In this document: positions 33,091 to 53,408 of the stretch, in pieces | Layout: each line of letters begins with the position of its first letter | Numbering within the stretch: position 1 is the first letter of the stretch | Virus record (IMG/VR): IMGVR_UViG_3300045836_000108 | Span: 1 to 64,000 of that record | Length of the DNA stretch: 64,000 nt | Source of the DNA: a virus | Lineage: Duplodnaviria; Heunggongvirae; Uroviricota; Caudoviricetes | Strand: one strand, 5' to 3' | Program-made: the position numbers and the translations under genes | The notes under the pieces: generated by a model | Databases searched by the model: none | Seen by the model: the letters and a program-made list of their open reading frames with translations, nothing else | What the model was told of the DNA's origin: nothing

Positions 33091-33131
33091 CTGCAAACAC
33101 CGACCAGGCCACACCAGAGGAGAAGCTGGAA

Positions 33132-34927: not shown

Positions 34928-34940
34928 GAGGAGAAGACCG

Positions 34941-35501
34941 GTGGAGTTCAGCAGCTTATCGCCGGAGATTCAGCGCAGCCTCATGTCTGGCTGCAAACTG
35001 ATCACCCACGCGTCCGCGCCCCACGACATGCACATCAGCACCGCCGTGGAGATCCAGATCTACCGCACCCCGGACGAGCCGGTGGTGAAGATGCTGTGCC
35101 ACGCCTGCGCAGAATTCGCGGACGACGGCACCTATCACCTCATCCCCGTCAAACCGCCGTCGGTGGAGATTCCCTCCGCCAGCATGCGGCTGGAATTGGC
35201 AGCAATGCTGGCCCGACGCAACTACGCCAGCGTCCTGCGCGGCAACCGGGAAACCAATCAGTGGCGCTCCGGCGTCGAGTGGGCCGAGATGCTGTTTGCC
35301 ATTGAACACGGCTACGAGCGGCGCATGGCCGACCCGGAAGAGTGGGACGCCTTTGAGGAGGAGCTGCACAGCTCCACCCAGGCGTTCCTGGTGGCGGAGC
35401 ACGAGAAGTCGTTCGCGGACGTTGCCGCCGAGCAGGCCCTGATCGACACCGGCCACCACCCCATCAAGTGGGGTATCGGAGCGCCGGAGAGTGTGCAGTA
35501 G
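34941..35501 (+). CDS. Hypothetical protein (186 aa), last island gene
   Basis: GTG after GAGGAGAAG. Confidence 0.5.
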   Translation: MEFSSLSPEIQRSLMSGCKLITHASAPHDMHISTAVEIQIYRTPDEPVVKMLCHACAEFADDGTYHLIPVKPPSVEIPSASMRLELAAMLARRNYASVLRGNRETNQWRSGVEWAEMLFAIEHGYERRMADPEEWDAFEEELHSSTQAFLVAEHEKSFADVAAEQALIDTGHHPIKWGIGAPESVQ

Positions 35502-35560
35502 GAGCAAACCTCCGGGACCCGGAGCCTGCCCCATGCGTCTCTGGCCAACCTTGAACAGAA

Positions 35561-35634
35561 AGCCCCCTACGGACAACCGTAGGGGGCTTCTGCGTGGGTC
35601 TAAAAAGCCCCGGCAATCCCGTGGGACGCCGGGG
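35561..35634. terminator. Two hairpin terminators between the + island and the capsid gene
   Basis: GCCCCCTACGG-ACAAC-CGTAGGGGGC followed by T-rich tract, then GCCCCGGCAATCCCGTGGGACGCCGGGG. Confidence 0.55.
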
Positions 35635-35843
35635 AACAATCCGGGCTACACCTCACCCGTCCCCTGGCAGGTACCGCAAGGACCGGCCTCATAACACCAC
35701 ACGGGGACACCGTTCTGGGACCCGTTCTCGTGGCTGAACTTCTGTCCATGCCTGCAAGGGATACGGCCGGAGCCGCTACAAGTCGTACAAGTTGACATCA
35801 GTCAACCCTACCAACCGCAACGGCCCGGCCAAGCCAAGCATCA

Positions 35844-39699: not shown

Positions 39700-40695
39700 C
39701 TAGTTGAAGAATCCGCTGTACGCGGAGATGTCGAACTCTGCGGAGGACACGCAACGGCAGCGGGGGTGCGCAGGCATTGACGGAAAGTCCATGATCGGAA
39801 AAGGGCTGTCCTCGCCGTACTTCTCGCAAATGGCGCAGACCCTACCGTCCCCGGCAGTCATCCACGTCACCTTCTGCACGCCCTCCGACTTGTACAGGTC
39901 CAGGGCGCCACGGGACATACCGAACGAGGCGGCCCAGTCCACGATGAACGCAACCGTGTCCTCCTCCGGGGACAGGGCCCCCAGAACGTCCACACCGGCC
40001 CGCACCATCTGGCTGTACTCGGCGCCGGAAGCGGCAAGGTCCCCCATCGTGTGCATGAACTCGTCCGCTGCCCGCCCCAGCATGCGGTGCAGCCAGCTGT
40101 CCGCTTCTGCCCAGGTGGCGCCGTCGTTGGCCAGGGCGTCATAGGCGTGCTGGAACGCAATGTCGAAGTCAAAACCCAGCTTGTGCTCAGCAGAGGCCGC
40201 CACCGCCAAAGCGTCGGCAAAGCCCTCCGCCCGGGACGCCGTGATCAGGTCACGCATGATGTCCCGGAGTTCCTGCCACGAATTGGTGCCCGGGACCCAG
40301 GCTAGGAGGCGCATAGCCGCATCCCTAGCCTCCCGCTTGACCCGACGTAGCCAATCAGGGTCCGGGGCCGCCTCCGACAGTCCTACGGCGTTTCTGAACA
40401 ACTCCACGGCCCCGGCAACATCCAGAGCCGCTGTCGCCTGCCGCCACACCGGCAACAGCTTGGCCGTGAAGTCATCCATCAACTTGAACCGGCGGGCAAA
40501 CACCGACGCCCACACGCCTTCAAGCTTCCCCAGATGGATAGCAACCTCAAGGATGCCCGGCTGATCCCAGTTCTCAGCACACAAGTCCATCGCAGCGATA
40601 CAGCCCGCGTGGACCCGCTCCGTCATCGGACCGCCCGACATGGCCCAACCCTGCGCATACGCCGTACGGGCATACGGCCGGATGGCGTCGTTCAA
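39700..40695 (-). CDS. MuF-like minor capsid / head morphogenesis protein
   Basis: 331 aa; C-terminal CAICE...PAHPRCRC motif, characteristic of the Phage_Mu_F/SPP1 gp7 family. Confidence 0.6.
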   Translation of the reverse strand: MNDAIRPYARTAYAQGWAMSGGPMTERVHAGCIAAMDLCAENWDQPGILEVAIHLGKLEGVWASVFARRFKLMDDFTAKLLPVWRQATAALDVAGAVELFRNAVGLSEAAPDPDWLRRVKREARDAAMRLLAWVPGTNSWQELRDIMRDLITASRAEGFADALAVAASAEHKLGFDFDIAFQHAYDALANDGATWAEADSWLHRMLGRAADEFMHTMGDLAASGAEYSQMVRAGVDVLGALSPEEDTVAFIVDWAASFGMSRGALDLYKSEGVQKVTWMTAGDGRVCAICEKYGEDSPFPIMDFPSMPAHPRCRCVSSAEFDISAYSGFFN

Positions 40696-40716
40696 TGAAC
40701 CCTCCTACAGTGAGGC

Positions 40717-40951
40717 CATGAGCGAGCCTTACATCAGCGGCATGGGCGAATTCCCGGAGATCCTGCACCGGATGCGGCACGTCATGGCCGGAACCGCCAT
40801 GCCCCCCCAGTTCACAGCCAACTTCATCCGCACCCTGGTGGAGGAACTTTGGGTAGCGCACAACGTCATCAAAGACTTGGAGAAACGCGTCACCGAGCTA
40901 GAAGACCGCACCCCCGACTGGCAGATACGGACCACCTCCCCGCTGCTCTAA
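40717..40951 (+). CDS. Small coiled-coil protein (77 aa) on the opposite strand, wedged between MuF and the beta-helix gene
   Basis: Very high GC3; ATG in frame of ORF 40640..40951. Confidence 0.4.
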
Positions 40952-42885
40952 CAGCCAATGGCCTTCTGCGTCGCCAACGTCGCCGTAGTAGCAGACCACT
41001 TCACCCACCAACCAGCAGGCAACCGGAAAGACATCAGCTCGCCAGCTGTAGCCGTCGCCGAGCTGATGATCGTGTTGGCCGGAGTAGACGTGGGACCGAT
41101 AGCCAACGTGTTAGCTGTACCGGCCGTACCAATCGTCAAATACACCATGTAGTCACGGGTGGTGTCGGACAGCTGCGCGGCGGTGCCGTTGGCGAATGTC
41201 GGTGTCAAAACTGGTGCGCCGTTTGCGGTGGTGGTCCCACCGCTCGGGGACCACACCCCCGTTGTCTGCGCCAACACGCCAGCGGACAAGCGCGCAATGG
41301 AGACATCGGAGCTGCCAGTACCGGGACCCCAGAACATGCCGCCGTCAGCGGTCAGCTGATACCGCTTGAACGTGTCGGTCCCCACGATGGAACCCAAGAT
41401 CGTGTTGCCGCTTGAGGTAGGAGACAACGTCAGCATGCCGGTCAACGGAGCCGGTGCCGACACGTTGGAGTTGCAGTTATCCAGCAGGAAACCTCCAGTG
41501 GAGGTTCCCAAGTTGATGTGCTTACCTGTCGGGGTGCCGATGTAGATGGCGGTAACGTTGCGGGCTGCAACGTTCTGCCCCGCTACCGTCGAGTTCAACG
41601 TCACGCCATTAGCAACCGTCTGCGGAGTGCCGGTGGCGATGAACACGTTGCTGAGGTCCGAGTCCTGCGACGACCAGGTAATCACGTCCTGGGGCGTCGA
41701 GTAGCCGGTATAGAAACCACCCGAGTAGCAGTACAGGTTGTTCACGTACACGCCCCGGGTGTTGGCGTCCACCAGCAGGTGCGGACCGCCGTTGATCACA
41801 GCGGTTTCCATCTTGCAGTCCACCAAGTAAATGCTGTTGCAACCGGAGGAACTGCCGGTGCCCTGCTGAATCCACATAGCGCCGGTGTGGAACGACTCAA
41901 ACCGGCACCCCACAAAGTGGATCTGGTTGGTGGTGTCGGTGGACGAACCGAAGCCGGACGCAGCAGCTGAGCACTGCAACAGGACGTTAGGGGTGGCAGC
42001 GTTGAACGTCGTGCTCCCCGACAGCTCAATCACCATGTTGTAGAACCGGGAATCCCAAAACTCCACGCCCGCGACACACACGTCAGGGTTGTTGACAATC
42101 CGGATGTTCTGAAAGTACAGGTTGTCGGCGTAATAGGCCTGAACAACCTGCCCGGTGAAGCCGTTCCCGGACAGATGAATGTTCTCGATCGAGCAGGTTT
42201 TGCAGTGGGTAGCACCTGTCGGGTCCGACGACACCCCCGACATGGAAATCAGCGTGCCGTTACCCAGCTTCTTGATCTGGGTGGAGCCGATAGAGTCCCC
42301 TACCAGACGGATGCCCGTGTAGGCGTTGGTGCCGTTGTTCAGCGTAATCGCAGCGGAGGAGCCTCCAGGCGTGACCGCGTACACCCCGGCAGGAAAGTAC
42401 ACAACGCAACCGTTAGCCGGTGACACCGCCGCAGCAGCGTTAACTGCTGCCTGAATAGCGGCGGTGTCGTCGGTGACGCCGTCCCCCGCAGCGCCGTACG
42501 ACTTCACCGAGATCCAGTCCGGTGTGCCAACGACAGTGCTACTTGGCGTCACAGGCGACAACGTTGAGATGTCTACCGTCGAACCCAGAGAGTGCGGCAA
42601 GTTCACGTTGTAGCTGCGCGGAGACAAACCCGTGATGGTTTCCGTGACCTTCCACGTCCAGTTTCCCGGCAGAAGCTGCCCCGTACAAGGCAGAACCACA
42701 GAGAAAGCGCCGGAGGTGTTCAGCGCCACCGTCACCCCGGTACCGCCCAACACAACCTGCCCCGTGGTGTCCACCAAGACCGGGGTAGAGGGCGTGAACG
42801 TCACCGTGCCCTGCATACCGGAACCTGTCGGGTTCAGGTAGGTGCCGGTCACCGTGATCGTGTTGATGTCCCCTGGCAGCGGCAC
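40948..42885 (-). CDS. Right-handed beta-helix (pectate-lyase-like) protein; depolymerase/tailspike candidate
   Basis: SVKSYGAAGDGVTDDTAAIQAAVNAA...VYFPAGVYAV signature of the pectate lyase fold; N-terminal domain MPLPGDINTITVTGT. Confidence 0.6.
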   Translation of the reverse strand: MPLPGDINTITVTGTYLNPTGSGMQGTVTFTPSTPVLVDTTGQVVLGGTGVTVALNTSGAFSVVLPCTGQLLPGNWTWKVTETITGLSPRSYNVNLPHSLGSTVDISTLSPVTPSSTVVGTPDWISVKSYGAAGDGVTDDTAAIQAAVNAAAAVSPANGCVVYFPAGVYAVTPGGSSAAITLNNGTNAYTGIRLVGDSIGSTQIKKLGNGTLISMSGVSSDPTGATHCKTCSIENIHLSGNGFTGQVVQAYYADNLYFQNIRIVNNPDVCVAGVEFWDSRFYNMVIELSGSTTFNAATPNVLLQCSAAASGFGSSTDTTNQIHFVGCRFESFHTGAMWIQQGTGSSSGCNSIYLVDCKMETAVINGGPHLLVDANTRGVYVNNLYCYSGGFYTGYSTPQDVITWSSQDSDLSNVFIATGTPQTVANGVTLNSTVAGQNVAARNVTAIYIGTPTGKHINLGTSTGGFLLDNCNSNVSAPAPLTGMLTLSPTSSGNTILGSIVGTDTFKRYQLTADGGMFWGPGTGSSDVSIARLSAGVLAQTTGVWSPSGGTTTANGAPVLTPTFANGTAAQLSDTTRDYMVYLTIGTAGTANTLAIGPTSTPANTIISSATATAGELMSFRLPAGWWVKWSATTATLATQKAIGC

Positions 42886-42899
42886 AGCCGACTCCTCAT

Positions 42900-43235
42900 C
42901 TACGGCAGTAAAGCCGTCAAATCCACCGTTGTTCCAAGCGTGTGAGGAATCGACTTCCCCGGGTACTGCGCCGCCGCTGCCCCGTTCAACGCCACACTGA
43001 TCGTGTACGTGAAAGCAGGCAGGTTAGCGTTGTCGGTGCACACCAACACCACCGACATGTTGTTGACGCCATCCAAAGCGGCCGACGTCGGACCCTCGAT
43101 AGTGACGTGACCCACCGAGTCATTCAACGGCAACACGGAAGGGGTGAACGTTACCGTGCCGGTTGCCTTCACCCCCAATACGTTTAACAAGGTCCCCGTG
43201 ACCGTGATCGTGTTCAAGTCCCCCGGCAACGGCAT
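42900..43235 (-). CDS. Stand-alone copy of the N-terminal domain of the beta-helix protein (111 aa)
   Basis: MPLPGDLNTITVTGT...GTVTFTPS shared with 40948..42885. Confidence 0.5.
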   Translation of the reverse strand: MPLPGDLNTITVTGTLLNVLGVKATGTVTFTPSVLPLNDSVGHVTIEGPTSAALDGVNNMSVVLVCTDNANLPAFTYTISVALNGAAAAQYPGKSIPHTLGTTVDLTALLP

Positions 43236-43244
43236 CTGCTGCTC

Positions 43245-43409
43245 CTATCAACGTCTAAGCCAAGACTCCACAGGCAGAAGGTGCAGAGCCAGAAAAGCCG
43301 CCGCCAGAGCCAGCAGCGCCTCCGGGGAGAACCACGTGTTGGTGTGGGCTCCCAAACCAATCAGGATGAAGTCCAAGACGGCCGCGATTACGGCCAGAAC
43401 AGCGAACAT
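43245..43409 (-). CDS. Small membrane protein (54 aa, 2 TM)
   Basis: ATG after GGAGGT overlapping the dcd stop; hydrophobic; not in the ORF track; coordinates approximate. Confidence 0.35.
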
Positions 43410-43987
43410 CAGCGCACCTCCGTGCGGTGAAAGTTGATCCAGCCCCGGGACGGGGTCGGACCGCGCTGTCCCTGATACCTGCTGCCGTTGGCTTTATTCC
43501 CGTACGGCTCCTCCGCTGGGGAGGACAGCTGAAAGAAACACAGCTGCCCGATCTTCATCCCCGGCCACAGCTTCACCGGCAACGACGCGACATTGGACAA
43601 CTCCAACGTGACGTGGCCTGTGAACCCGGGATCGATGAAACCAGCGGTGGAGTGGACCAGAAGCCCCAGGCGCCCCAGAGAAGACTTCCCCTCCAGCCGC
43701 GCCGCAACATCGTCCGGGAGAGACACTGCCTCCAGTGTCGAACCCAGGACGAACTCCCCGGGGTGGAGGATGAACGGCTCACCGCCCTCTGGCTCCACCA
43801 TCCGGGTCAGCCCCGGCTGCTCCACAGACGGGTCAATAACTGCGTAGCGGTGGTTCTCAAACACCCGGAAGAACCGGTCCAGCCGGACGTCCACGGAGGA
43901 CGGCTGCACCATGGAGAAGTCCAGCGGGTCCAGACCGATGTGTCCCTTGGCGATGCTTGCGCGGATGTCCCTGTCGGAGAGCAGCAT
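43409..43987 (-). CDS. dcd: dCTP deaminase
   Basis: 192 aa; full-length match in character to Dcd ([21 protein letters not shown]...[17 protein letters not shown]...). Confidence 0.75.
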
Positions 43988-44006
43988 CCAAGCAGCCTAG
44001 CCTGTG

Positions 44007-44089
44007 CGGAAGACGAGGGAATCGAACCCCCAACGGTGTTACCCGCCACGGTTTTCGGGACCGCTTGACTCTCCAATGTCGGGTCTTCC
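44007..44089 (-). tRNA. Type II tRNA-like gene, anticodon CGA (Ser?) with C33
   Basis: 83 nt; acceptor GGAAGAC/GTCTTCC, T-arm GGGGGTTCGATTCCCTC, anticodon arm GCGGT-CCCGAAA-ACCGT, long variable arm; coordinates +/-2. Confidence 0.5.
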
Positions 44090-44185
44090 TTGCGCCTGGT
44101 TTGGGTTTCCAACCCATCCGGGAGCACGGCGTTGCGCAAACCAGGCAAGACCTGCCGTTCTCGACGCGGCAGGTGCTCCATCAGT

Positions 44186-44256
44186 GGGCGGCCGTGGGAT
44201 TCGAACCCACACGCACGGAAACGGGTCCGCTGTCCTACCTGTTAGACCAGACCGCC
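44186..44256 (-). tRNA. Atypical tRNA-like gene (6-nt anticodon loop; possible pseudo-tRNA)
   Basis: Acceptor GGCGGTC/GGCCGCC, D-arm GTCT..AGAC-like, T-arm GTGGGTTCGAATCCCAC are canonical but the anticodon arm folds only as GCGGA-CCCGTT-TCCGT. Confidence 0.35.
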
Positions 44257-44378
44257 CATGACACGGAGTCGTAAGACCCTTGGCTGTCAAGCAGCGCAGG
44301 CGACGTGTCTCGCCCCAGTACCCCACTGGCCAGGTGGAGCGCTTGCGGTTTGTAGTGACCGATACCGCCAAACGGTCG

Positions 44379-44484
44379 CGGAGAGAGTAGGGATTGAACC
44401 TACGCCAAGGGGATTACGTCCCTTTGGGCACCGGCCGCCTGATCAGGGCCCAGACCGGTCCCATTGCCACTCTGGCACCTCTCC
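44379..44484 (-). tRNA. Aberrant 106-nt tRNA-like element (Ser-like arms with ~11-nt insertion in the anticodon loop and oversized variable region)
   Basis: Acceptor GGAGAGG/TCTCTCC, T-arm GTAGGTTCAATCCCTAC, D region GTGCCAGAGTGGCAATGG, Ser-like anticodon stem CCGGT...GCCGG enclosing 18 nt. Confidence 0.3.
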
Positions 44485-44489
44485 AACGT

Positions 44490-44564
44490 CGGGATAGCAG
44501 GATTCGAACCTGCGCTCTCCTGATCCCAAATCAGGCGCCCTCGTCCAAGCTAGGCCACATCCCG
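44490..44564 (-). tRNA. tRNA-Pro (anticodon TGG), slightly atypical D-arm
   Basis: Acceptor CGGGATG/TATCCCG, anticodon arm CCTGA-TTTGGGA-TCAGG (U33, G37), T-arm GCAGGTTCGAATCCTGC. Confidence 0.55.
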
Positions 44565-44625
44565 TTGGCTGGGTGACCGGACAGCGCGCGTGCCCGTGAA
44601 GTACCGTGCGCCGTCCGGACCCCCA

Positions 44626-44698
44626 GTGGAGCAGGTGGGACTCGAACCCACATCCGCCTGCTTGCAAAGCAGGTGCTCAGCCATTGAGCTACAACCCC
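44626..44698 (-). tRNA. tRNA-Ala (anticodon TGC) with encoded CCA
   Basis: G3-U70 wobble, D-arm GCTC-AATGGCT-GAGC, anticodon arm CCTGC-TTTGCAA-GCAGG, T-arm GTGGGTTCGAGTCCCAC, 3' CCA. Confidence 0.65.
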
Positions 44699-44785
44699 AT
44701 GCGCGGGCCCGAGAACCGGACCTTGGCCGCCGTGGCGGTTTGGGCGTTCGCGCCATGCCCTACAAGCACATTACCGTGTTACCGG

Positions 44786-45127
44786 TTACTCGTCACGGCC
44801 AAAAGCGGAATCCCGCGCCCTACGCAACACACGGATCAGCCGGTTCAGCTCATCCCTGGACAACGGCGGCAGGAACCGCTCCGTGGCCGTGTTGTTGGGA
44901 GGCCAACAATCCGCACCCTCATAGTCCTCCCACGGCTGCGGCTCATGCGACACCACTGTCAGCTGCACGTAGCCCTTAACCTGGGAGCCGTCGTGCCAGC
45001 GCACATACAAGATGTCGTCCATCTCAGCCGTGGCACCCTCATCCGAGCCCCGCAGACCGGGCAGGCCGGGCAGGCCGTGCAGCATTTTCCGCCAATGCGC
45101 AAAGTTGATCTGTTCCTTCGGCATCAC
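44786..45127 (-). CDS. Hypothetical protein (113 aa)
   Basis: GTG/ATG after GGAGGTGGC RBS. Confidence 0.5.
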   Translation of the reverse strand: MMPKEQINFAHWRKMLHGLPGLPGLRGSDEGATAEMDDILYVRWHDGSQVKGYVQLTVVSHEPQPWEDYEGADCWPPNNTATERFLPPLSRDELNRLIRVLRRARDSAFGRDE

Positions 45128-45183
45128 GCCACCTCCATCACGGAGAACACTCCCCTCACGGGAGCACTAGCGGGATGCTAGCA

Positions 45184-45208
45184 GGCAGCCCCCGCATCCC
45201 GGGGGCTG
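45184..45208. terminator. Palindromic hairpin GCAGCCCCCG-CATCC-CGGGGGCTGC
   Basis: Perfect 10-bp stem between two leftward genes. Confidence 0.45.
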
Positions 45209-45218
45209 CCTTGCGCTG

Positions 45219-45479
45219 CTACTTCTTGTGCTTCGGTTCCGGCTTGTCCGCCGTCTCCTCCGCCTGCTTCTGCTGCGGCGTGTACTGCTCCCAGTCCTGA
45301 GCTGCCTGATCCTCGTCGTTCGGAGCCCAATCAGTGGCGTCCGGAGCGTCCGGGGAGTGCAGCTTCAGCTTTGACTGAGACTCCTCCACGTGGTGCCGCA
45401 GATGCTGGTCCTGCGGCCAGCCCTGCCGACGTACCGCGTGCTGTTCCGTTGCGAGCTTGTGAGCGTCCATGAAGTTCAT
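45219..45479 (-). CDS. Hypothetical protein (86 aa)
   Basis: ORF track; acidic/Gln-rich C-terminus. Confidence 0.45.
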   Translation of the reverse strand: MNFMDAHKLATEQHAVRRQGWPQDQHLRHHVEESQSKLKLHSPDAPDATDWAPNDEDQAAQDWEQYTPQQKQAEETADKPEPKHKK

Positions 45480-45508
45480 GCCGCCCCGGCTACCCCCATC
45501 CGCCGGAG

Positions 45509-45757
45509 CTACACGCCCAATTCCGAACTCAACGCCCCGTCCATCGACAACAGCGTGGCCCGCACAAAACAGTCCTTGGCCTCCAGCAGCTTCCGCAGCC
45601 CCGCCGTCAGCTCTATGCCGTCCGGCAACGACAGCGCAAGCTCCTGCGCCAAGATGGAGAACTTCATGGACACGTCAGCTAGAGCCTGCGGCAGGTGCCC
45701 GTACTCAAACAGCCGCAGCATATGCTGAGTAGCGGGATGGCGGTTAGAGAACGGCAT
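45509..45757 (-). CDS. Hypothetical protein (82 aa)
   Basis: ORF track. Confidence 0.45.
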   Translation of the reverse strand: MPFSNRHPATQHMLRLFEYGHLPQALADVSMKFSILAQELALSLPDGIELTAGLRKLLEAKDCFVRATLLSMDGALSSELGV

Positions 45758-45777
45758 CGGTTCCTCCAGTGGCGGGC

Positions 45778-46047
45778 TCAGGGCCGGACCTTAATACGCT
45801 GCACAATCAGGATGTGCCAGTCAGTGGCTTCCTTGTCGTCCCGCGCAGGCCGGTACGGTACAAACCCAACCCCAGGCAGATGCAACACCAACTCGCCATC
45901 ATCTGCCTCTACCCACCAAGTAATAGACCAACCAGACCGCTTCACCGGCTGAACACCCCAGCGGGTGCCGTCCTCCCGGGGCTCGCCGTTGAAGAGGCAG
46001 TCCATAGCCTCCTCAAACGACATGCCGGTTTTCACTCCAACCACCAC
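45778..46047 (-). CDS. Hypothetical protein (89 aa)
   Basis: ORF track; overlaps stop of upstream gene. Confidence 0.45.
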   Translation of the reverse strand: MVVGVKTGMSFEEAMDCLFNGEPREDGTRWGVQPVKRSGWSITWWVEADDGELVLHLPGVGFVPYRPARDDKEATDWHILIVQRIKVRP

Positions 46048-47813
46048 GTAGCTGTTGGAGCAGTGGTCCCGTTGATCTGGAACCAGCCCTGAGGACCCAC
46101 CCGCAGCTGATACAGCGTCAACGCCCCAGCAGCCTGCGTGTACACCGTCGTCATCGACGGAGCCGACGCCCCGCCCATCAACGCCGACAGCTGGATCGTG
46201 GTGATACCTGTACCGCCGGTCAGGTTAATGGTGACCCAACGGCCATACGGGTTCATGATCGCCGTGTTAACCGACAACGATGGAGGGCTGGAAGCAGGAC
46301 CGGGGAACTGGAAATCGCAGATCACCTGCATGGGGGTGGCTGAGCCAAGCGTCGGCGCAGCGGCGCCGTTGCCCTTGAAATGCAGCACGCCGCAGGCGGC
46401 TACCATCCCGGAGGAGTTGTCGCGGATGGTTTGAGTGCCTTCCGTGTCTACCGCCCCAGAGATCATCGGTCCAACACCGGACTGCCCGGGACCGATGATC
46501 TCCAGCATGTTGTTGCAGCCCTCAATGGAGATCTGCGACAAGTTCATGCCGTGGGAAGCGCCCACGCCCGGGTTGGAGTGCCCTGACCCGGCATCGTCGT
46601 AGTTCCCTACCGGGCAGATACCGGACCAGCAATACAACATCACCCCACCAAGCCAGTCGGTGTGCTCCGTCATGAACAGGCCGCGCGTGTACCCGCCATG
46701 GCAGATCACGTTCCGGAGCTGGTTGTTGTCGTTGTTGCCAGCAGACGGCAGCAGGACGCCGATGGACAAGCCCGCGCTGAAACCATTCGGATTGTTGAAG
46801 TCCGCCGCCGCGTACGTGCCGGTAGTGCCGTAGCCAAAGTTCTCCAAGACGCAAGCGGCCACCCCGTGCATGTTCAGGGCGCCGTACGTCCAGCCGTTAG
46901 CCGAGTGCGTGGTGTAGACCTGCATATTCTGCAACCGCACCAGCGCGTTGTTGTACAGCAGGGAGTTGCCGCCGTAGCCGTACGCTCCGGTCTGCCCGGA
47001 GATCACAGCAGGGTTGCCGGACGCCGTCAGAGAGTTGGTTTGAGCTGTGGCGTTGGGGAACACCCCGAACGACACCAGAGTGGAACCGGACAGCTGCGGA
47101 GTCTTCTGATGCCAGTGCCGGGTGGTTCCGCCGTCGGTGGCGCCGAGAATGATCAGCTCCACCTTGTTGCCGGTGTCCGGCTGCACCGGGATAGTCAACT
47201 GCCCGTTGCAGCCGTTGACGCCCGGCTGGAGTGCCCCGGCAACGCCGTAAAACAGCCCGTTACCTGGTGGGATCCACACAAGGCCCATGCCGTACTTCTG
47301 GCCGTAGGCGAAAGCCGCGTTGATGGTGGCCTGTATCGCAGCCGTGTCGTCGGTTGCCCACAGCACCAGGAGACTGGACGCGGTGGCCGTAGCCGCAGCG
47401 GAGAGGGTCACCGTGGACGCGGACGTGTAGCCGGTGATCGTGGCCACTAGGGATGTCGCTCCGGACGTCAGAGCGCCCTTGACCTGAATGGCTTTGCCAA
47501 CGTCAGCCCGGGTGAACGGCGCCGACGGGCACGTAAGCACATTAGAGCTGGCGGTAACGGAACCGTCTGTTGCCGCCTGCCCGTCTCCCTTAGCGCCGTA
47601 GGTGCGGACGTCAAACACCCAAGAACCGGCATTGACTACCGACTGGTAGCTGCCGGTGTTGCCGGTTGTCGAGACCGGAACTTGCCCTACCTGTGCGACA
47701 GACGGGGCGTTGAAGCCGTTGACGGACGCCCCGCCGACGGTGAGCTGATCCAGGTACACGGGCCCCGGGATGAACCGCTCAGTGGTAACCACATATGGCT
47801 CGGTGGCAGTCAC
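46032..47813 (-). CDS. Second right-handed beta-helix protein (depolymerase/tailspike candidate)
   Basis: GTG after AGGAAA RBS at 47813; VRTYGAKGDGQAATDG pectate-lyase-like signature; N-terminal domain shared with 47873..48547. Confidence 0.55.
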   Translation of the reverse strand: MTATEPYVVTTERFIPGPVYLDQLTVGGASVNGFNAPSVAQVGQVPVSTTGNTGSYQSVVNAGSWVFDVRTYGAKGDGQAATDGSVTASSNVLTCPSAPFTRADVGKAIQVKGALTSGATSLVATITGYTSASTVTLSAAATATASSLLVLWATDDTAAIQATINAAFAYGQKYGMGLVWIPPGNGLFYGVAGALQPGVNGCNGQLTIPVQPDTGNKVELIILGATDGGTTRHWHQKTPQLSGSTLVSFGVFPNATAQTNSLTASGNPAVISGQTGAYGYGGNSLLYNNALVRLQNMQVYTTHSANGWTYGALNMHGVAACVLENFGYGTTGTYAAADFNNPNGFSAGLSIGVLLPSAGNNDNNQLRNVICHGGYTRGLFMTEHTDWLGGVMLYCWSGICPVGNYDDAGSGHSNPGVGASHGMNLSQISIEGCNNMLEIIGPGQSGVGPMISGAVDTEGTQTIRDNSSGMVAACGVLHFKGNGAAAPTLGSATPMQVICDFQFPGPASSPPSLSVNTAIMNPYGRWVTINLTGGTGITTIQLSALMGGASAPSMTTVYTQAAGALTLYQLRVGPQGWFQINGTTAPTATWWLE

Positions 47814-47872
47814 GGGTTTCCTCCCGGACGGTGAAGCTACAGCGCCCCCAGGCGGACCTGGGGACAGGGGTA

Positions 47873-48547
47873 TCAGCTGAAGTAGCCGTAGATCTGGTGA
47901 CCGGCCGTCGGCGTGATCGTGCCCAGGCTGGACCCGGCAGCTACCGGCGTGGTCTGCGACGTCAGCGACGTACCGCACCAGATAGGCGCTGCCGTGGCCA
48001 GTCCGGCGTGGGTGAATGCCGGTGCGCTGGCGAACGTTGGCATCGTACCTGCCACTACACACACAAACAGGTAGTAGTAGCCGGTGTAGGTGGTGGTGAA
48101 CGACGGGATGGCCGTGGTCGTGAGGGTGTTGGCGGCGAAGTACGCTGCGCCGGTGTTGTCGGCGGACACGGTCAACACCTTGTTGGTGTTGTCGGCCAGG
48201 CCAACCCAGGCGTGGGTGCCGGTAGCCTCCGCTGCGACGGAGAACAGAGTCAGGTTCGACAGGGTCAGACCTGCCTCGATAGGCAGCAGCGTCTCATACA
48301 CGGTGCCGGACGTCAGCGCAGCGGAGGTGGAGGTGGCCGACATGCGGCCATCCACCGACGCGGCCTTGGCACCGGACGGCTCCAGGTACTGGTACATCCA
48401 GGCCTTGGAGCCGGTGATACCGCCGGAGGCGACGATGGGGCCGTTGAAGGCGTTGTTGCCGGTGCCCTGGAGGGTCAGCTGGTCAATAGCGACGGTGCCG
48501 GGGGTGTACTGCCCGGTCACTACGACGTTGGGTGCGACGGCGTTCAT
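47873..48547 (-). CDS. Structural protein (224 aa) sharing its N-terminal domain with the downstream beta-helix protein
   Basis: P.VVT..PG.V.IDQLTLQG..N.FNGP.VA motif common to both N-termini. Confidence 0.5.
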   Translation of the reverse strand: MNAVAPNVVVTGQYTPGTVAIDQLTLQGTGNNAFNGPIVASGGITGSKAWMYQYLEPSGAKAASVDGRMSATSTSAALTSGTVYETLLPIEAGLTLSNLTLFSVAAEATGTHAWVGLADNTNKVLTVSADNTGAAYFAANTLTTTAIPSFTTTYTGYYYLFVCVVAGTMPTFASAPAFTHAGLATAAPIWCGTSLTSQTTPVAAGSSLGTITPTAGHQIYGYFS

Positions 48548-48611
48548 CTGTGTTTACCCGATCTGCTTGGGGATGAGTGCCGGGACGTCCTGCGCCCTCA
48601 GCGGGTGACCA

Positions 48612-50288
48612 CTAGGCATCGTTGCTCCTTCCCGGCCCGGGAAGCTGCTTCAGAGCTTCTTTCCGGCGGGCCCTGTACGCGCGGTCCCACGATGCCGTCA
48701 GAGCGCGCCTATCGGCCTCTGAGGCTGTTTCCCGGGGCGGCTTGCCCTGAGTGGCGTCCTTAGGAAGTCCCGGACCAACAAGCGGCGACATCTTGGCGTT
48801 GGGATGCATGTCCGGGACTGGAGCGACCTTCCCGCCTGACACCGCAGCAGCATTAGCAGCCAAAGCAGCCGGAGGCTCCGGAACCTCAGCGTCCGGCAGT
48901 CCCGGCACGTAGCCGTTGACACCGGCAGCGGTCAGAGGGGCAGCGTTCTTGCCGACGCTGGCCTTGGACATCGCTTCCATGTCGTCCCACGCCACGATGC
49001 CGGTGCGGGTGTCCACGATGTTGATGTCTCCGCCGTCGATAGGCGGCTTGCCCAGTTCCGCACGCCAGTCGTTGACGGAGTACGCACCGTACTTGAGCCG
49101 CAGCTCACGCACCTGCTCCACCGTGAGACTGTCACGGAAGTCCACCTCGGCGAACTCCAGATGCCAGCCTTTGATGCCGAATCCCTGCTGAACGATGTGG
49201 TAGTTCAGCTTCTCCAGCAGAAGGTTGGCGATCGGGATGACCGTGTTCACCTGGAACGACTTGTTTTGTGCCTCGCCGGAGCCGCCGCCGATGTTGCCGG
49301 TCTCGATGATCCCCACCTTGGACGGGGGAACGCCGAACGCTGCGATAATCTGGTCCCGCAGCACCCGCTCCGTGTCCAGGTAGTCGGAGACCTTACGCGG
49401 GTCCAGCACCTGCACAGCGCCGCCGCCGGAGGTAATGACGGGGTTGCCGACGGCTTTGGGCCCCAGGTTGAACACCTGGTACTGCTCCCGCCAGCGTTGG
49501 ATGTCGGTGTCTTCGTAGTGGGCCAGGTCCACGTGGATGCGGGGCGGGTCTCCGCGCCGGAAGCATTCCTGGATGGTGGCCATGGTGAAGATCCAGGCGG
49601 TAACCGGAAGCAGGGCTAGCTGCGCCGGGGACACGCCGTACAGGCCTCCGCGCGGGGAGTCCAGGGAGATGTGCACCACCTCGTGGATCTTGAACTCTGC
49701 CTGCCGTAGCCCATCCACGTCCTGCCGGTAGCCGGTCACTTCCCCATGGGAGTCCGCAATCACGGTCATGGTGGTGGCGTCCAGCAGGTATAGAGCAACC
49801 GGCTGCCCCAGAAGCCAGATCACCTCAATGTAGGCGTCGCCAAAGAGCTGCAAGGACGTGATGACCATCCGCAGCAGCTGGATGATGTCCTGGGTTTCGT
49901 TGGTGAACTTCATCAGACGGCGCAGGTTAAGCACCTCTGGTGGCTCTTCCGGGACTTCATCCTCGGGTACGTCATCGTCTGGGACTATCTGGAGCCCTCC
50001 GGCGGTGACGGTGCGGGCGATAACGCCGATAGCGCTGCTCATCCAGCCGCAGGTGTTGTAGGCGTCGTGGAGGTGTTGGAGCAGTTGTTGACGCTCTGCC
50101 GATGCTGCCATCTGCTGGGACGGCATGTCGGAGGTGAGGGGGACGCCGAATTCAAAGCCGCGTCGGCGGATCTGCGCTGCGGTCCATTCGGGCATGAGCG
50201 CTTGGGCGGATGGTGCGTTTTGTTTGGCTTCTTGGGACTGCTCGGTGCGGAAGCCGAGGAGGCGTGCGAGGCCGTTGCCGACACCCAT
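48612..50288 (-). CDS. Portal protein
   Basis: 558 aa; after terminase in transcription order; typical portal size/composition. Confidence 0.65.
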   Translation of the reverse strand: MGVGNGLARLLGFRTEQSQEAKQNAPSAQALMPEWTAAQIRRRGFEFGVPLTSDMPSQQMAASAERQQLLQHLHDAYNTCGWMSSAIGVIARTVTAGGLQIVPDDDVPEDEVPEEPPEVLNLRRLMKFTNETQDIIQLLRMVITSLQLFGDAYIEVIWLLGQPVALYLLDATTMTVIADSHGEVTGYRQDVDGLRQAEFKIHEVVHISLDSPRGGLYGVSPAQLALLPVTAWIFTMATIQECFRRGDPPRIHVDLAHYEDTDIQRWREQYQVFNLGPKAVGNPVITSGGGAVQVLDPRKVSDYLDTERVLRDQIIAAFGVPPSKVGIIETGNIGGGSGEAQNKSFQVNTVIPIANLLLEKLNYHIVQQGFGIKGWHLEFAEVDFRDSLTVEQVRELRLKYGAYSVNDWRAELGKPPIDGGDINIVDTRTGIVAWDDMEAMSKASVGKNAAPLTAAGVNGYVPGLPDAEVPEPPAALAANAAAVSGGKVAPVPDMHPNAKMSPLVGPGLPKDATQGKPPRETASEADRRALTASWDRAYRARRKEALKQLPGPGRSNDA

Positions 50289-50313
50289 TCAGTGCCTCCT
50301 TCACAGGTTAAAC

Positions 50314-50361
50314 GGGCTTTACTTTGTTTAGGGGGTCAGCTAGGGTTGGACTCGTAAGCCA
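50314..50361 (+). promoter_or_regulatory. Conserved promoter module copy (GGGCTTTACTTTGTTTAG..TAGGGT..CGTAAGCCA)
   Basis: Matches the 13-copy consensus; followed by GAGGAGA and ATG 50383. Confidence 0.55.
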
Positions 50362-50382
50362 ACCAACCCAGAGGAGAACCTG

Positions 50383-50823
50383 ATGGCCCACAGCAACGCC
50401 ACCCTCATCACCTACTTCAACGAGGACGGCAGCATCAGCTCCAGCGAGATCGTCACCGACGCCGAGCTGACCGACGACAACGTCACCATGCGGGAACTCC
50501 GCCAGGACGTCCAGGACATCGCCAACAGCGGAGGCCTGACCGTCTACGTCTGCCGCGTCGTCTCCGCCGAGGACGAGATCTGGGACTCGGAAAAGGTTCT
50601 GGCTGCCATCCGCGCCGACAAGTTTGCCAAGCTGTACAAGGCTGAGGAACTGGTGAAGATGAACACGGCGTTGGCCGAAGCCGGGATGGACTCCGCCACC
50701 CGCGAGCGGGGTGCCCGGCAGCTGGAGAAGAACAAGAAGGCGCTGCGGAAGGGCATTGACGCCCTGTCGCAGGACGAACTGAAGCTGTACGGCGACTACC
50801 GGCAGCGGATGCTGGGCTACTAA
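50383..50823 (+). CDS. Hypothetical acidic protein (146 aa) on the opposite strand between portal and terminase
   Basis: Own promoter module and own terminator. Confidence 0.55.
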   Translation: MAHSNATLITYFNEDGSISSSEIVTDAELTDDNVTMRELRQDVQDIANSGGLTVYVCRVVSAEDEIWDSEKVLAAIRADKFAKLYKAEELVKMNTALAEAGMDSATRERGARQLEKNKKALRKGIDALSQDELKLYGDYRQRMLGY

Positions 50824-50840
50824 GCCCAAGCCGCTAGAAA

Positions 50841-50867
50841 GCCCCCAGGAGCACCCTGGGGGCTTTC
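50841..50867 (+). terminator. Intrinsic terminator GCCCCCAGGAGCACCCTGGGGGC + TTTCCC
   Basis: Hairpin directly after stop of 50383..50823. Confidence 0.5.
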
Positions 50868-50915
50868 CCGTGTCCAGGAACCACCCAGACGGCTACGGGG
50901 CCGGGAGGATTGCTC

Positions 50916-51104
50916 CTAGGCAGTCTCCCGCTGCATTCCCGGGCAGTCGCAGAGGCGGCACCGGTACGGGCAGTCCCGGTCCGGCCAAGACCTCCACGCC
51001 CACTCCGGGCACTCGTGGCTGTCATCATGGGAGTGGTGGACGTCGGCGTGGCCGCACCCCGTACACGCCGCTACTACACGTAGAACCTGTAGACCGGTGT
51101 TCAT
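50916..51104 (-). CDS. Small Cys/His-rich protein (62 aa; CTGCGH..HHSH..HEC..C..C.C.C)
   Basis: High GC3 after the first 12 codons; weak start context. Confidence 0.3.
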   Translation of the reverse strand: MNTGLQVLRVVAACTGCGHADVHHSHDDSHECPEWAWRSWPDRDCPYRCRLCDCPGMQRETA

Positions 51105-51131
51105 CAGGGCCCTTTCAGTAGGCTTGGAGGC

Positions 51132-51431
51132 GTGCCCAAAGCTACCTGCCTCAAGTGCTCCAACACCGCCACAATCGCCATGCTCTGCGGCAAGTGCTAT
51201 CGCAACAGCCAGACGGAAGTGCCGGTTGCCCACCGGCCGGAACCGCGCGTTACGAAAATCCCCACGGCTGCCGGACCTGCGGTTTCTTACGAAACTCCAC
51301 CAGCTGGAGTGCAGCAGACCCGCTGTGAAGCCCCGGGCTGCGAGACTTTCGTAAGCCAACAGCCGACTGGCCGCCGCAAGCGGTTCTGCTCCGCGCGCTG
51401 CCGGGTGCGCTTCAACGCCGCCAAGGACTAG
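51132..51431 (+). CDS. Zinc-finger protein with N-terminal CxxC..CxxC and C-terminal RKRFCSARCR (FCS-like) motif
   Basis: 99 aa; + strand, converging on the large terminase gene. Confidence 0.45.
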   Translation: MPKATCLKCSNTATIAMLCGKCYRNSQTEVPVAHRPEPRVTKIPTAAGPAVSYETPPAGVQQTRCEAPGCETFVSQQPTGRRKRFCSARCRVRFNAAKD

Positions 51432-52984
51432 ATCCCCCACGGGTTCCCTGACGGGTGCAGCACCGGGAAGCCCCCGATGACCTCTCCCTTGTAGGCCGGG
51501 GTGAACTCTCCCCGCTGCTTCGGGTCCAACACGACGTCGCCGCCCGTAGGGACCGGCTCCGGCCAGTGGAACCGCACCTCGTTGCCCAGGTTCACCAGCA
51601 TGTACCGGAGCGCGTCTGCGGCATGGTCTGGGGCTTTAGGGTCTGAGTCCTCCGGGTTGCCGGTCTTGGCGTACGGCAAGTCCGCAAGCTCACTGAACAG
51701 CTTCATGCACGGGGAGAAAATGTGCAGCCTCGGGCAGGTTTCCCAACCCTCCGCCGCGTGCATCCGGCAAGCCGGAGCCTCAGCAAGGAACGAGTGGACA
51801 CGCTGCCAGCCCGCTACCCGGCTGCCCGGTCCCTTCCCTGCCTTCTCCAGATGCACGCCGTTCTCCGCGTACACCTGCGCGATGGGCTTAGCGTCACCGT
51901 TAACAGCCCACATTGCGTCGTCTGCGTACCGGGCTGTGATGGACTCTCCCGGCTGCTCTGCGGCCAAAATAGACCGTGCCTGTTCTGTCTCCCCGATACC
52001 GGTCTGGTAGATCTCCCGATAGATCCACAACCGCTTGTCCTCGTCCAAAGCACCCCACAGGACAGCCCACGGCGCTGCGAAACCCCAGTCCACAGACATG
52101 TACCGGCGCCACGTCTCCGGCAACGTCAAAGGCTGCACCACATGCCGGTCGTACGACAGCTCCGGGAACACCTGGCCCTCAAAGACGTCCCAGTTGCCGT
52201 CCACGTAGGCCTTGCGGAGCTGTTCCGGCAGACCCATCAAGTCCGCGCGGTACTCCTCATTCAGGTGCGGGTTGTCCGACAGCTTCGACGGGATGAAACG
52301 CACTGTCCGCTTGCGTTTCTCATCCAACACGACTTCCTGGCCGTACTTGGTGGGCTTGATGTACCGGTCCTTGGTGGCCGAGTGCGACGGGCCACCAGGG
52401 TTGGAACCAGACCGGATACCCAACACCGGAATGTTGTTGCCGGACCGCAGCCGCGACTCCAGGAACGTCAACACGTCCGACGGCGTCAGCGTCCGCTCAT
52501 CAAACAGCAACAGCTGAAACTCGGAGCCCTGACGGCGGGAAGCGTCCACCATGTTCTCGGCGTACCGGAACATCATGATCGAGCCGTTCGGGAACCTCAG
52601 CTCGTAGTCCCCACCAGCCCACTTAGCGCCAAGGACGTTAGCAAACCCGTAGGATGCCAACTCCTTAATCAGCGACTCCTTCAGCTCCGGGTACGTCCTC
52701 CGGAACGCACCCACCCGGATACCCGGGTACCGCACACACGCCCGGATACCCTCCATCAGCAGGGCAACAGTCTTCCCGCCGCCAACAGCACCGCCGTACA
52801 ACACGTCATACTCGGTGGCGTCGTGGAACATCTGCTGACGCGGCGTCGGAACGTAGCCCAGAGCAGCGAAAACGTCCGTACGCCGCATCTTCTCAAGCTG
52901 GATCTTGTTGTACTGCTCCTGAAGCCTCTTCAGCTCCTCCAGCCGGGAGAGCTTGTACGCTGCCAGGCTCATCTCCCCAGCCAT
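51428..52984 (-). CDS. Terminase large subunit (start uncertain; frame open to 53086)
   Basis: Walker A-like GGAVGGGKT near the N-terminus; ~520-550 aa; ATG 52984 has a GGAGGGA RBS. Confidence 0.7.
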   Translation of the reverse strand: MAGEMSLAAYKLSRLEELKRLQEQYNKIQLEKMRRTDVFAALGYVPTPRQQMFHDATEYDVLYGGAVGGGKTVALLMEGIRACVRYPGIRVGAFRRTYPELKESLIKELASYGFANVLGAKWAGGDYELRFPNGSIMMFRYAENMVDASRRQGSEFQLLLFDERTLTPSDVLTFLESRLRSGNNIPVLGIRSGSNPGGPSHSATKDRYIKPTKYGQEVVLDEKRKRTVRFIPSKLSDNPHLNEEYRADLMGLPEQLRKAYVDGNWDVFEGQVFPELSYDRHVVQPLTLPETWRRYMSVDWGFAAPWAVLWGALDEDKRLWIYREIYQTGIGETEQARSILAAEQPGESITARYADDAMWAVNGDAKPIAQVYAENGVHLEKAGKGPGSRVAGWQRVHSFLAEAPACRMHAAEGWETCPRLHIFSPCMKLFSELADLPYAKTGNPEDSDPKAPDHAADALRYMLVNLGNEVRFHWPEPVPTGGDVVLDPKQRGEFTPAYKGEVIGGFPVLHPSGNPWGI

Positions 52985-53408
52985 ACTCGGATCCCTCCAG
53001 ACGGAGCTGCTTACCCAACTCTTCAATCTGCCTGTCGATAGCGTCCACGGACGTGATCTCCAGGTTGACCTGGAGCGTCGGGTCAAGCTTCAACAGCTTG
53101 CAGATACGGTCCGTGACCTTCAAGACCATGTCGCCTGCGCCCTTGTCGCCCTTTACCGCGTCACCCCAGAAGGCCCGCCGCATCCGCAGCAGCACCAGCA
53201 GCTGTTCCTCGATGAGGAGGTCCACGTTGCGGGTGCGTTCCATGACGTGCTGCTCAAGAGCACGGTCGATGTCTACCGCTGCTGCGGAGCGTCCGGCGTA
53301 GCCCAGCTGGTCGGCAATCTGCTGGTAGGTGAGGCCTGCCAGTTTCAGCTCGACAGCTTGCGCTCGACGCTTGGCTGTAACGATCTGCTGCGCTTTGGAT
53401 GCCGCCAC
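52893..53408 (-). CDS. Terminase small subunit candidate (HTH-containing)
   Basis: GTG start; HTH LTYQQIADQLGY; immediately upstream of the large terminase. Confidence 0.5.
   Translation of the reverse strand: MAASKAQQIVTAKRRAQAVELKLAGLTYQQIADQLGYAGRSAAAVDIDRALEQHVMERTRNVDLLIEEQLLVLLRMRRAFWGDAVKGDKGAGDMVLKVTDRICKLLKLDPTLQVNLEITSVDAIDRQIEELGKQLRLEGSEYGWGDEPGSVQALPAGGAEEASGAVQQDPA

Follow-up and report, generated by a model that had tools for sequence, protein, structure and literature searches.

Short conserved N-terminal anchors followed by a right-handed beta-helix are known from the tailspikes of phages P22, Sf6 and HK620 and from the multi-depolymerase Klebsiella phages K64-1 and KP32, where several receptor-binding proteins occur per genome and a given body recurs in other phages behind a different anchor. 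The locus described here is alike in these respects. It belongs to an uncultivated high-GC phage, of which a stretch of 64,000 nucleotides (the window) was analysed, and it centers on two genes, A and B, that adjoin the portal gene. Compared to the above systems, the anchor is unannotated, lineage-specific, approximately 20-45 aa long and predicted to be unstructured rather than a folded domain. Furthermore, one of the two partners (A) is a core lectin-like protein of 224 aa, and the genes are located between portal and MuF and not in the tail module.

By structure, A matches both the tail spike gp29 of mycobacteriophage Bxb1 (PDB 9d93; identity 11%) and gp25 of cyanopodophage A4 (PDB 9jwb), and it superposes on the C-terminal domains of the BRock, Issmi, Sentinel, FlowerPower and Schmidt proteins. 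Unlike gp29 and the collagen-like and minor tail proteins, A consists of the terminal domain and a 45-aa arm, without shaft, collagen repeats or PPII bundles, and unlike gp29 it is encoded in the head block. A4 gp25 is an auxiliary cement protein that forms a trimer on the capsid three-fold axes of A4, a podophage of a cyanobacterium (PMC12002296). It is the closest to A in overall size (201 vs 224 aa) and architecture, both having an extended N-terminal anchor and a CBM-like sandwich, with A known from a predicted structure. However, it has no detectable sequence homology to A, the gene neighbourhood of A is compatible with a capsid role but not specific to it, and the 593-aa beta-helix that bears the same anchor has no counterpart in A4. 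The PhiC31 gp49-type fibres Samy gp28 and RemusLoopin gp18 have an N-terminal domain of ~110 aa, homologous to two further genes of our locus (BH2 and g111), and then a variable body. Although the Samy and RemusLoopin fibre gene closes the tail module beside the endolysin, BH2 is located between dcd and MuF, and here a stand-alone anchor copy (g111) precedes it. Bodies that are exchanged behind a common anchor are textbook modularity in phages, and the locus is unusual mainly in gene location. The features are as follows.

48612-50288, minus strand: portal, upstream limit of the variable interval (Pfam Phage_portal E=6e-31; phrog_12, phrog_2662)
47873-48547, minus strand: gene A, 224 aa, ATG start
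48413-48547, minus strand: residues 1-45 of A, shared N-terminal anchor (BLASTP, AF2, motif alignment, HMM)
47876-48385, minus strand: residues 55-224 of A, predicted CBM-like beta-sandwich, 'fibre/spike C-terminal domain'
46032-47813, minus strand: gene B, 593 aa, GTG start at 47813
47685-47813, minus strand: residues 1-43 of B, shared N-terminal anchor
43409-46047, minus strand: non-structural cargo of the portal-MuF interval (Tad2-like, small ORFs, tRNAs, dcd)
45219-45479 and 45778-46047, minus strand: two Tad2-like ORFs (Pfam Tad2-like E=7e-8 and 7e-4)
44184-44698, minus strand: three tRNAs (ARAGORN)
43409-43987, minus strand: dCTP deaminase, dcd (Pfam DCD E=6e-47)
42900-43235, minus strand: g111, stand-alone BH2-type N-terminal domain (45% identity to the BH2 N-terminus; phrog_14726)
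40948-42885, minus strand: BH2, 645 aa (PF12708; N-domain homologous to tail fibres)
39700-40695, minus strand: MuF-like minor head protein, downstream limit of the variable interval (phrog_115 E=1e-8)

The GTG start of gene B is preceded by GGGAGGAAACCC. The MuF-like protein also matches positions 515-710 of phrog_2662, and its match to Pfam Phage_Mu_F is weak. The MCP is at 35844-37223 and is followed by connector candidates at 26000-35700. An earlier note on this DNA had placed portal, MuF, dcd and tRNAs around A and B, and the Pfam and PHROG matches together with the three tRNA predictions bear this out. It had also described two pairs of anchor and beta-helix within the head half of the late operon; both pairs are there, with the correction that 40948-43235 comprises two ORFs and not one. 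Genes A and B are in the head-morphogenesis block and not in the tail block. The latter carries its own candidates, namely a LamG protein of 938 aa (17170-19986) and, at 15529-17160, three paralogues with lengths of 177-181 aa, and we found no similarity of A to these three paralogues.

The N-termini of A and B are homologous, as previously claimed, over about 43 aa and not ~60 aa. BLASTP aligns residues 1-43 with 21 of 43 identical (E=7e-8), and the alignment beyond residue 45 is gapped and weak. When either N-terminus was used as a phmmer query against the ORFs of the window, its partner was recovered and no third anchor-bearing protein was found. The anchor core PY.V.T..Y.PG....D is kept in the A and B families across 13 metagenomic relatives. 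An HMM of the anchor matched all A and B homologues in these 13 related loci at E <=1e-10; among 8,567 ORF segments, the only other matches were two extra proteins of one relative (L015), a selectivity that is far beyond chance. The two extra proteins have lengths of 157 aa and 299 aa, the longer one with a divergent A-like domain, and both are placed between portal and MuF. Since the anchor HMM matches them, one anchor bears at least three types of cargo. Within the single genome of the window, A and B carry a homologous N-terminal segment on unrelated bodies. In the AF2 monomer, residues 1-45 of A are extended with no secondary structure (pLDDT 51-76), and residues 1-32 of B have pLDDT <50. 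Searching 5.8 billion proteins with the anchor profile resulted in 266 word-sharing candidates, none of them significant, the peptide being too short for a database that large.

The body of A is predicted to be a CBM-like beta-sandwich at the C-terminal end of the disordered arm. Pfam and PHROG scans of A matched no family, a sequence search against the PDB matched no chain even at E <=10, and tblastn against isolate phage genomes gave no match. The 87 homologues of A are all metagenomic. A genome-collection scan for A-like genes confirmed none and hence assigned no host, and the sole named entry among NCBI-sourced homologues in the cluster look-up is one Streptomyces hypothetical protein. BFVD matches of the sandwich itself, to E ~1e-8, come from Streptomyces and Gordonia phages and are collagen-like and minor tail proteins. 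Using tblastn and HMM searches, we found an A-like domain as the C-terminus of tail-spike (phrog_7458/2234) and collagen-like fibre proteins of distant phages. It is present in 2,585 cluster representatives (clusters at 50% identity), and in all of the best 150 of these 2,585 it is at or near the C-terminus; proteins having the domain, in the same best 150, range from 150 to 1252 aa and approximately one third are longer than 400 aa. Judged from these searches, residues 55-224 of A are homologous to the C-termini of annotated tail spikes and fibres. Identity of A among the relatives is 57-82%, and within A the anchor is more variable than the cargo domain. A evolves in the manner of a core structural gene, unlike a hypervariable receptor-binding tip.

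That B continues into a beta-helix, as proposed in the earlier note, is supported from several sides. A VRTYGAKGDGQAATDG motif was found at residues 69-84, residues 68-166 match phrog_32881 'pectin lyase activity' (E=1e-13), and the AF2 model (pLDDT 86) has serial short strands over residues 66-520. The match to Pfam PF12708 has 16.3 bits and is under the curated gathering cutoff of 27. Foldseek of the model against the PDB gave LKA1 gp49, K64-1 S2-4, Kp32gp38, AP22 gp54 and the Sf6/HK620 tailspikes as best matches, in addition to GH87 and GH55 glucanases. Although the Foldseek probability is 0.9-1.0 for LKA1 gp49, K64-1 S2-4, Kp32gp38, AP22 gp54, GH87 and GH55, the TM-scores are only 0.2-0.3. 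The model predicts the body of B as a right-handed parallel beta-helix followed by a small C-terminal beta-sandwich. No fewer than six unrelated N-termini can precede this body, among them collagen repeats and an anchor of the g111/BH2 type. Cultured phages yielded a single match to B, gp167 of Streptomyces phage Frankenweenie, which is annotated 'minor tail protein' and is 44% identical. Five residues, E383, H384, E431, D456 and E458, all acidic or His, are invariant in 41 homologues of B and are compatible with a putative active site. Both the structural and the sequence matches agree with the earlier impression of host-recognition or glycanase modules.

The second pair has an anchor that differs from that of A and B. 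g111 is 45% identical to residues 1-111 of BH2 (E=2e-19) and matches the N-terminus of phrog_14726 'tail fiber protein'. The N-terminal domain of BH2 is homologous to the tail fibres of the Streptomyces phages Samy (gp28) and RemusLoopin (gp18), with E=1e-14 to 1e-16, and its body matches PF12708 above the cutoff (E=4e-17, 63 bits). Together, these matches characterize BH2 as a PhiC31 gp49-type tail-fibre N-domain joined to a pectate-lyase-like beta-helix. The small ORFs that precede Samy gp28 and RemusLoopin gp18 were considered as g111 homologues, which would make the pair a known cassette, and were rejected as not homologous.

A megablast search of 40000-53000 against 50,697 phage genomes gave no match, and no isolate shares more than 26% identity in portal or MCP. 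As there are no close isolates, synteny was drawn from metagenomic contigs, namely the 13 relatives, 12 of which cover the A region. Related contigs L011-L015 are ~100 kb long. All 12 relatives that cover the region carry A, without exception in the portal-MuF interval and immediately after the portal region. B is present in 8 of the 12, and four (L006, L007, L008 and L015) have A without B. BH2-type genes were found in approximately 6 of 12, and dcd in three relatives (L003, L013 and L014). Presence and absence among close relatives is therefore polymorphic for B, BH2-type genes and dcd, and not for A: A is a core gene of the lineage, B is accessory, and B, BH2, dcd, the tRNAs and the Tad2-like genes are variable cargo. 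Conservation of the block as a core in related genomes, which the earlier note had set as grounds against its own interpretation, is seen for A and not for B or BH2. This also bears on the proposed insertion between a normally adjacent portal and MuF. The profile of phrog_2662 is that of a single protein in which portal takes up positions 42-501 and MuF 515-710, L006 and L008 have a portal-MuF spacing of only 1.3-1.5 kb with A as the sole homologue of a window gene in the gap, and the content of the gap differs among the 13 relatives, all of which supports an interval expanded from a junction that is otherwise tight. Its size was overestimated (7.9 kb in the window instead of ~9 kb), and A, being in 12 of 12 relatives, is not part of the variable insertion.

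We consider it fairly probable that A and B are interchangeable host-recognition proteins that dock on one kind of virion site through their shared peptide. Both would be on the virion surface of one phage, held by the same N-terminal peptide of ~20-45 aa, and attachment would be to the tail rather than to head or neck. A, as a small lectin/CBM-like sandwich, would probably bind a cell-wall glycan reversibly. B, as a beta-helix of the trimeric-tailspike type with a small C-terminal sandwich, would form trimers and probably act as a glycan hydrolase or lyase. g111 and BH2 would constitute a second, independent cassette of the PhiC31 gp49 tail-fibre type on a different anchor. Both cargo domains and both anchors are spread in a modular manner, and the arrangement may have arisen when a recombination-tolerant gap opened between portal and MuF. 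The lineage would retain A in this gap and swap the rest, that is, additional proteins with the anchor, BH2-type spikes, anti-defence genes, dcd and tRNAs. The peptide would then be a previously unannotated short docking peptide with at least three kinds of cargo in a lineage without a cultured member. The C-terminal beta-sandwich of fibres and spikes is very widespread, with ~2,600 clusters at the 50% identity level, and scanning A gives neither a Pfam nor a PHROG match. It also follows that host-recognition genes can occupy the head block, and pipelines that seek receptor-binding proteins only after the tape measure would miss such genes.

Instead of the tail, the peptide may be an N-terminal anchor on the capsid surface, as in A4 gp25, or on the portal or neck. 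A would then be a decoration or auxiliary cement protein having a glycan-binding module, and B a trimeric beta-helix enzyme that occupies the same sites on head or collar. This is unlikely in our view, with an appreciable chance nonetheless. It agrees with the position of the genes between portal and MuF in every relative, with the conservation of A like that of core head genes, and with the weak match of BH2 to the phi29-type pre-neck appendage phrog_17212 (E=0.008). L018, the nearest outgroup locus, has its A-like gene directly after MCP-like genes, and in another lineage (L060) a B homologue is between MCP and connector genes. However, the A-like domain is far more common as the C-terminus of spikes and fibres of the tail, L019 has its A-like gene between the tape measure gene and a phrog_5313 tail protein, cultured phages have the BH2 anchor as a true N-domain of tail fibres, and A has no sequence-level relationship to A4 gp25. 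The interval also contains clearly non-structural morons, so that gene position tells little. We hold it doubtful, in particular, that the shared peptide is a capsid or neck docking tag by which a ~100-kb actinophage lineage decorates its head or collar with modules that are exchangeable and are encoded beside the portal gene, a lectin-like one as standard and a trimeric beta-helix glycanase or other as an option. If this were true, the locus would be a head-borne display system of depolymerase and adhesin, and an anchor that docks on capsid or neck would lend itself naturally to displaying enzymes on phage heads.

Several observations count against the tail-docking explanation that we favour. 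These are the head-block location, A4 gp25 being closest in size and architecture, and the placements in L018 and L060. The tail block's own candidates, the core-like conservation of A, and the sub-cutoff Pfam match and low TM-scores of B belong to the same list.

The earlier note suggested a mobile host-range or depolymerase island, in which the whole block including A would have been inserted between portal and MuF and would move between phages as a unit. We find this improbable. B, BH2, dcd and the small ORFs are polymorphic for presence among the relatives, elsewhere portal and MuF adjoin or form one protein (phrog_2662), and in L015 a g111-type cassette is present on the opposite side of A, all of which is in favour of an island. 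However, A is universal with a fixed position, which already partly refutes this reading for A, and the cargo varies gene by gene and not as a block: L014 has B and dcd without BH2, and L015 has the g111-type cassette without B. No integrase, transposase or homing endonuclease came up when the ORFs at 40948-48547 were scanned with Pfam and PHROG. There is no GC step at the interval (0.60-0.65 inside vs 0.63-0.65 outside) and no skew discontinuity. With no mobility gene or compositional break, the interval is a plasticity hotspot and not a demonstrated mobile island. Identity to the relatives is 63-81% for B and follows that of portal (61-82%), which suggests vertical descent with loss and gain and not recent transfer. 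Nor is the island specifically one of depolymerases, its cargo being mixed (Tad2-like anti-defence genes, dcd and tRNAs).

A and B are adjacent and probably co-transcribed, with nothing above shuffled expectation in a promoter and terminator scan of 40500-50500 and a GC-rich hairpin between them that is not significant (z=-1.6). For chaperones of the Tfa type, the usual gene position is downstream of the fibre gene. It is very improbable that A is a tail-fibre-assembly-like chaperone or adaptor for B, or that B is soluble off the virion, with the N-terminal likeness serving A-B hetero-oligomerisation and not a common docking site, since A is kept in the four genomes without B, is tandemly duplicated in L003, L005 and L013, has the distal domain of many spikes and fibres, and has a gene order unlike that of Tfa-type chaperones, and since L015 has three anchor-bearing proteins in total and no B, even if the missing terminator-like site and N-termini predicted to be disordered as monomers, as in segments that fold on partner binding, would suit such a role. 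A split-gene or frameshift origin of A and B was also considered and rejected: the two genes have separate starts, are 60 nt apart and are both intact in the relatives.

The late operon of this phage genome segment lies on the minus strand in the order terminase, portal, gene A, gene B and, after several further genes, MuF and major capsid protein (MCP). The GC content of the window is about 63%, and we found no DNA-level relative of it among 50,697 deposited phage genomes.

Features of the window, all on the minus strand.
51428-53086, minus: large terminase
48612-50288, minus: portal (Pfam Phage_portal, 6e-31)
47873-48547, minus: gene A, 224 aa
46032-47813, minus: gene B, 593 aa; GTG start at 47813, GGGAGGAAACCC just upstream
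between B and the tRNAs, minus: four small ORFs
44184-44698, minus: three tRNAs
43409-43987, minus: dCTP deaminase (dcd)
between dcd and g111, minus: g53
42900-43235, minus: g111
40948-42885, minus: BH2, 645 aa (Pfam Pect-lyase_RHGA_epim, 4e-17)
39700-40695, minus: MuF-like protein
between the MuF-like gene and the MCP gene, minus: g152 and g700
35844-37223, minus: MCP
19996-23430, minus: tape measure gene, further downstream

According to the earlier note, A and B share homologous N-terminal segments of about 60 residues. The homology was confirmed (BLASTP E=7e-8, 21/43 identical), but the strong similarity extends over about 43 residues only. Since the two copies of this anchor are 49% identical, the sequences point to an old divergence and not to recent gene conversion. 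No third ORF of the window carries the segment. An alignment of N-terminal sequences from homologues of A and of B in the relatives gave PY.V.T..Y.PG....D as the anchor core across the lineage, with G17 and D22 invariant. The anchor HMM, searched against 8,567 ORF segments from all loci, matched all A and B homologues at E of 1e-10 or better and just two other proteins, both in the related locus L015 (6968-7471 and 9043-9951), which has no B. One, of 157 aa, has a different, novel C-terminal domain of about 100 aa, and the other, of 299 aa, has a divergent A-like domain. Both are located between portal and A, so that, counting A, this locus encodes three proteins with the anchor in the portal-MuF interval. 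The anchor peptide is short, seems to be unfolded and is specific to the lineage of the window.

Gene A has no Pfam or PHROG family, and all of its 87 close homologues come from metagenomes. In its AF2 model (pLDDT 88) residues 1-50 are extended without secondary structure and are followed by a confident beta-sandwich. Among predicted viral structures, the model is best matched by C-terminal domains of Streptomyces and Gordonia phage proteins of the collagen-like or 'minor tail' kind. By sequence, the same domain stands at the C-terminal end of 489-1067-aa proteins from distant IMG/VR phages, whose bodies are tail-spike (phrog_7458/2234) or collagen-like fibre. An exhaustive profile search with the domain returned 2,585 cluster representatives (1,530 at E of 1e-10 or better), and in all 150 of those listed, proteins of 150-1252 aa, it stands at or near the C-terminus. 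As the domain ends so many spikes and fibres, A represents a common design in minimal form, with an anchor joined to a distal fibre or spike domain, and its modelled fold suggests a small lectin-like protein. This very large uncurated domain family and the hitherto undescribed anchor motif are useful by-products of the analysis.

The AF2 model of B (41-sequence alignment, pLDDT 86) starts with a disordered stretch (residues 1-32), continues as a long beta-helix and ends in a sandwich. Its top solved-structure matches by Foldseek are tailspikes and capsule depolymerases of phages, namely LKA1 gp49, K64-1 S2-4, Kp32gp38, AP22 gp54 and the tailspikes of Sf6 and HK620, with GH87 and GH55 glucanases also among the matches, at high probabilities but low TM-scores. 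The Pfam pectate-lyase match was under the cutoff; phrog_32881 matched residues 68-166 (1e-13). The sole cultured-phage match (44% identity) is gp167 of Streptomyces phage Frankenweenie, which is annotated as a 'minor tail protein'. In the 120 homologues listed, out of 275, the B body follows at least six unrelated N-termini, including collagen repeats and the g111/BH2-type anchor (P0097, P0126, P0146, P0163 and others). The contig L060, of about 110 kb and from an unrelated lineage with a ClpP protease and an HK97-type MCP, encodes a 66% identical body with a different N-terminus (10001-11836). The 60-nt spacer between A and B (47814-47872) contains a 9-bp GC-rich hairpin without a T-tract, whose folding energy is not significantly better than that of shuffled sequence (z=-1.6).

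A second anchor and beta-helix pair had also been claimed, and it is real, g111 being 45% identical to BH2 residues 1-111 (E=2e-19), although 40948-43235 comprises two ORFs and not one. This different anchor shows homology to the N-terminal domain of tail fibres of the PhiC31 gp49 type (E=1e-14 to 1e-16). The genes of two such fibres, Samy gp28 and RemusLoopin gp18, stand last in the tail module, adjoining the endolysin, whereas g111 and BH2 lie near MuF.

In order to assess the portal-MuF interval, we compared 13 related contigs with portals 61-98% identical. That portal and MuF are normally adjacent, as the earlier note supposed, is borne out by the phrog_2662 profile of a single protein, which has portal at positions 42-501 and MuF at 515-710, so that the junction is tight or fused elsewhere. 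A occurs in 12 of the 12 relatives covering the region, always between portal and MuF, and is duplicated in tandem in three (L003, L005, L013). In L006 and L008 the gap is 1.3-1.5 kb and A is the sole homologue of any window gene there. B is present in 8/12, BH2-type cassettes in about 6 of 12 and dcd in three (L003, L013, L014); L015 has a g111-type cassette between portal and A. We therefore read A as core, and not as part of the variable insertion to which it had been assigned, and the rest of the interval as variable cargo. The suggested mobile island is not supported, as the interval showed neither a recombinase or endonuclease nor a compositional step. The gap acts as a hotspot in which various kinds of accessory genes are found. 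A Tad2-like ORF (Thoeris anti-defence 2; 45219-45479, minus) scored 33.3 bits against a Pfam cutoff of 25 (E=7e-8), and a second (45778-46047, minus) matched weakly (E=7e-4); relatives encode Tad2-like and BubE-like genes at the matching place between portal and MuF.

These results agree with the usual modular way in which phages build host-recognition proteins, and the A/B design belongs with the known multi-RBP phages whose proteins share an anchor. A conserved element at the N-terminus would dock interchangeable bodies on one particle site. What sets this case apart is the short anchor peptide, the pairing of a constant partner, the small lectin-like A, with an optional one, the predicted beta-helix enzyme B, and the location of the genes in the portal-MuF gap. 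We consider it probable that the anchor docks on the tail, because both cargo domains and the BH2 anchor are overwhelmingly used in tail spikes and fibres, and because in L019 an A-like gene stands between the genes for the tape measure and a phrog_5313 tail protein. Several points suggest display on the head or neck, a reading that seems rather doubtful. The genes have a fixed position adjoining the portal, the A-like gene of the nearest outgroup locus, L018, comes after MCP-like genes, and the L060 homologue of B, in its different lineage, occupies the head-proximal part of the module, with the MCP and three small genes on one side and the connector and tail-tube genes on the other; a precedent is cyanophage A4 gp25, a 201-aa auxiliary cement protein of the capsid with an N-terminal anchor and a CBM-like sandwich. 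However, gene position is weak evidence, since the interval also carries clearly non-structural genes. If confirmed, head display would deserve considerably more attention. We consider it unlikely that A is a chaperone or B a soluble enzyme, since A is also found in genomes lacking B and its own domain is one that terminates fibres.

The long tape measure gene and the absence of a sheath gene among the tail ORFs scanned in the window suggest a siphophage. For one tRNA (44184-44257, minus), which adjoins tRNA-Pro(tgg) and tRNA-Ala(tgc), ARAGORN read a two-base 'cg' anticodon and assigned no identity. In L012 (12633-14093), L013 (18143-19636) and L015 (12852-14339) the MuF-like proteins are 486-497 aa long and carry a 2H phosphoesterase / 2'-5' RNA ligase domain (PF13563) at the N-terminus; the window ORF is 331 aa, and the space upstream is too small for this domain. 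A 700-aa ORF between MuF/g152 and MCP (37258-39360, minus), in the position expected of a scaffold or protease, matches no family in Pfam or PHROG; both its ends are kept in relatives (L007, L006, L008), and its middle is variable or absent. The 938-aa phrog_5313/LamG protein directly follows the tape measure (17170-23430, minus), and the slot usual for a distal tail protein has no gene of its own. In L019 that position holds the 183-aa A-like gene, and the phrog_5313 protein that comes after it, of 1506 aa, contains in addition a region resembling a phosphodiesterase. After the 938-aa protein, and with an endolysin also beyond the tape measure gene, come three tandem paralogues of 181, 177 and 177 aa (15529-17160, minus; 30-37% identical), which match PHROGs labelled 'virion structural/tail' at their C-terminal ends and may form the tail-tip receptor-binding set.
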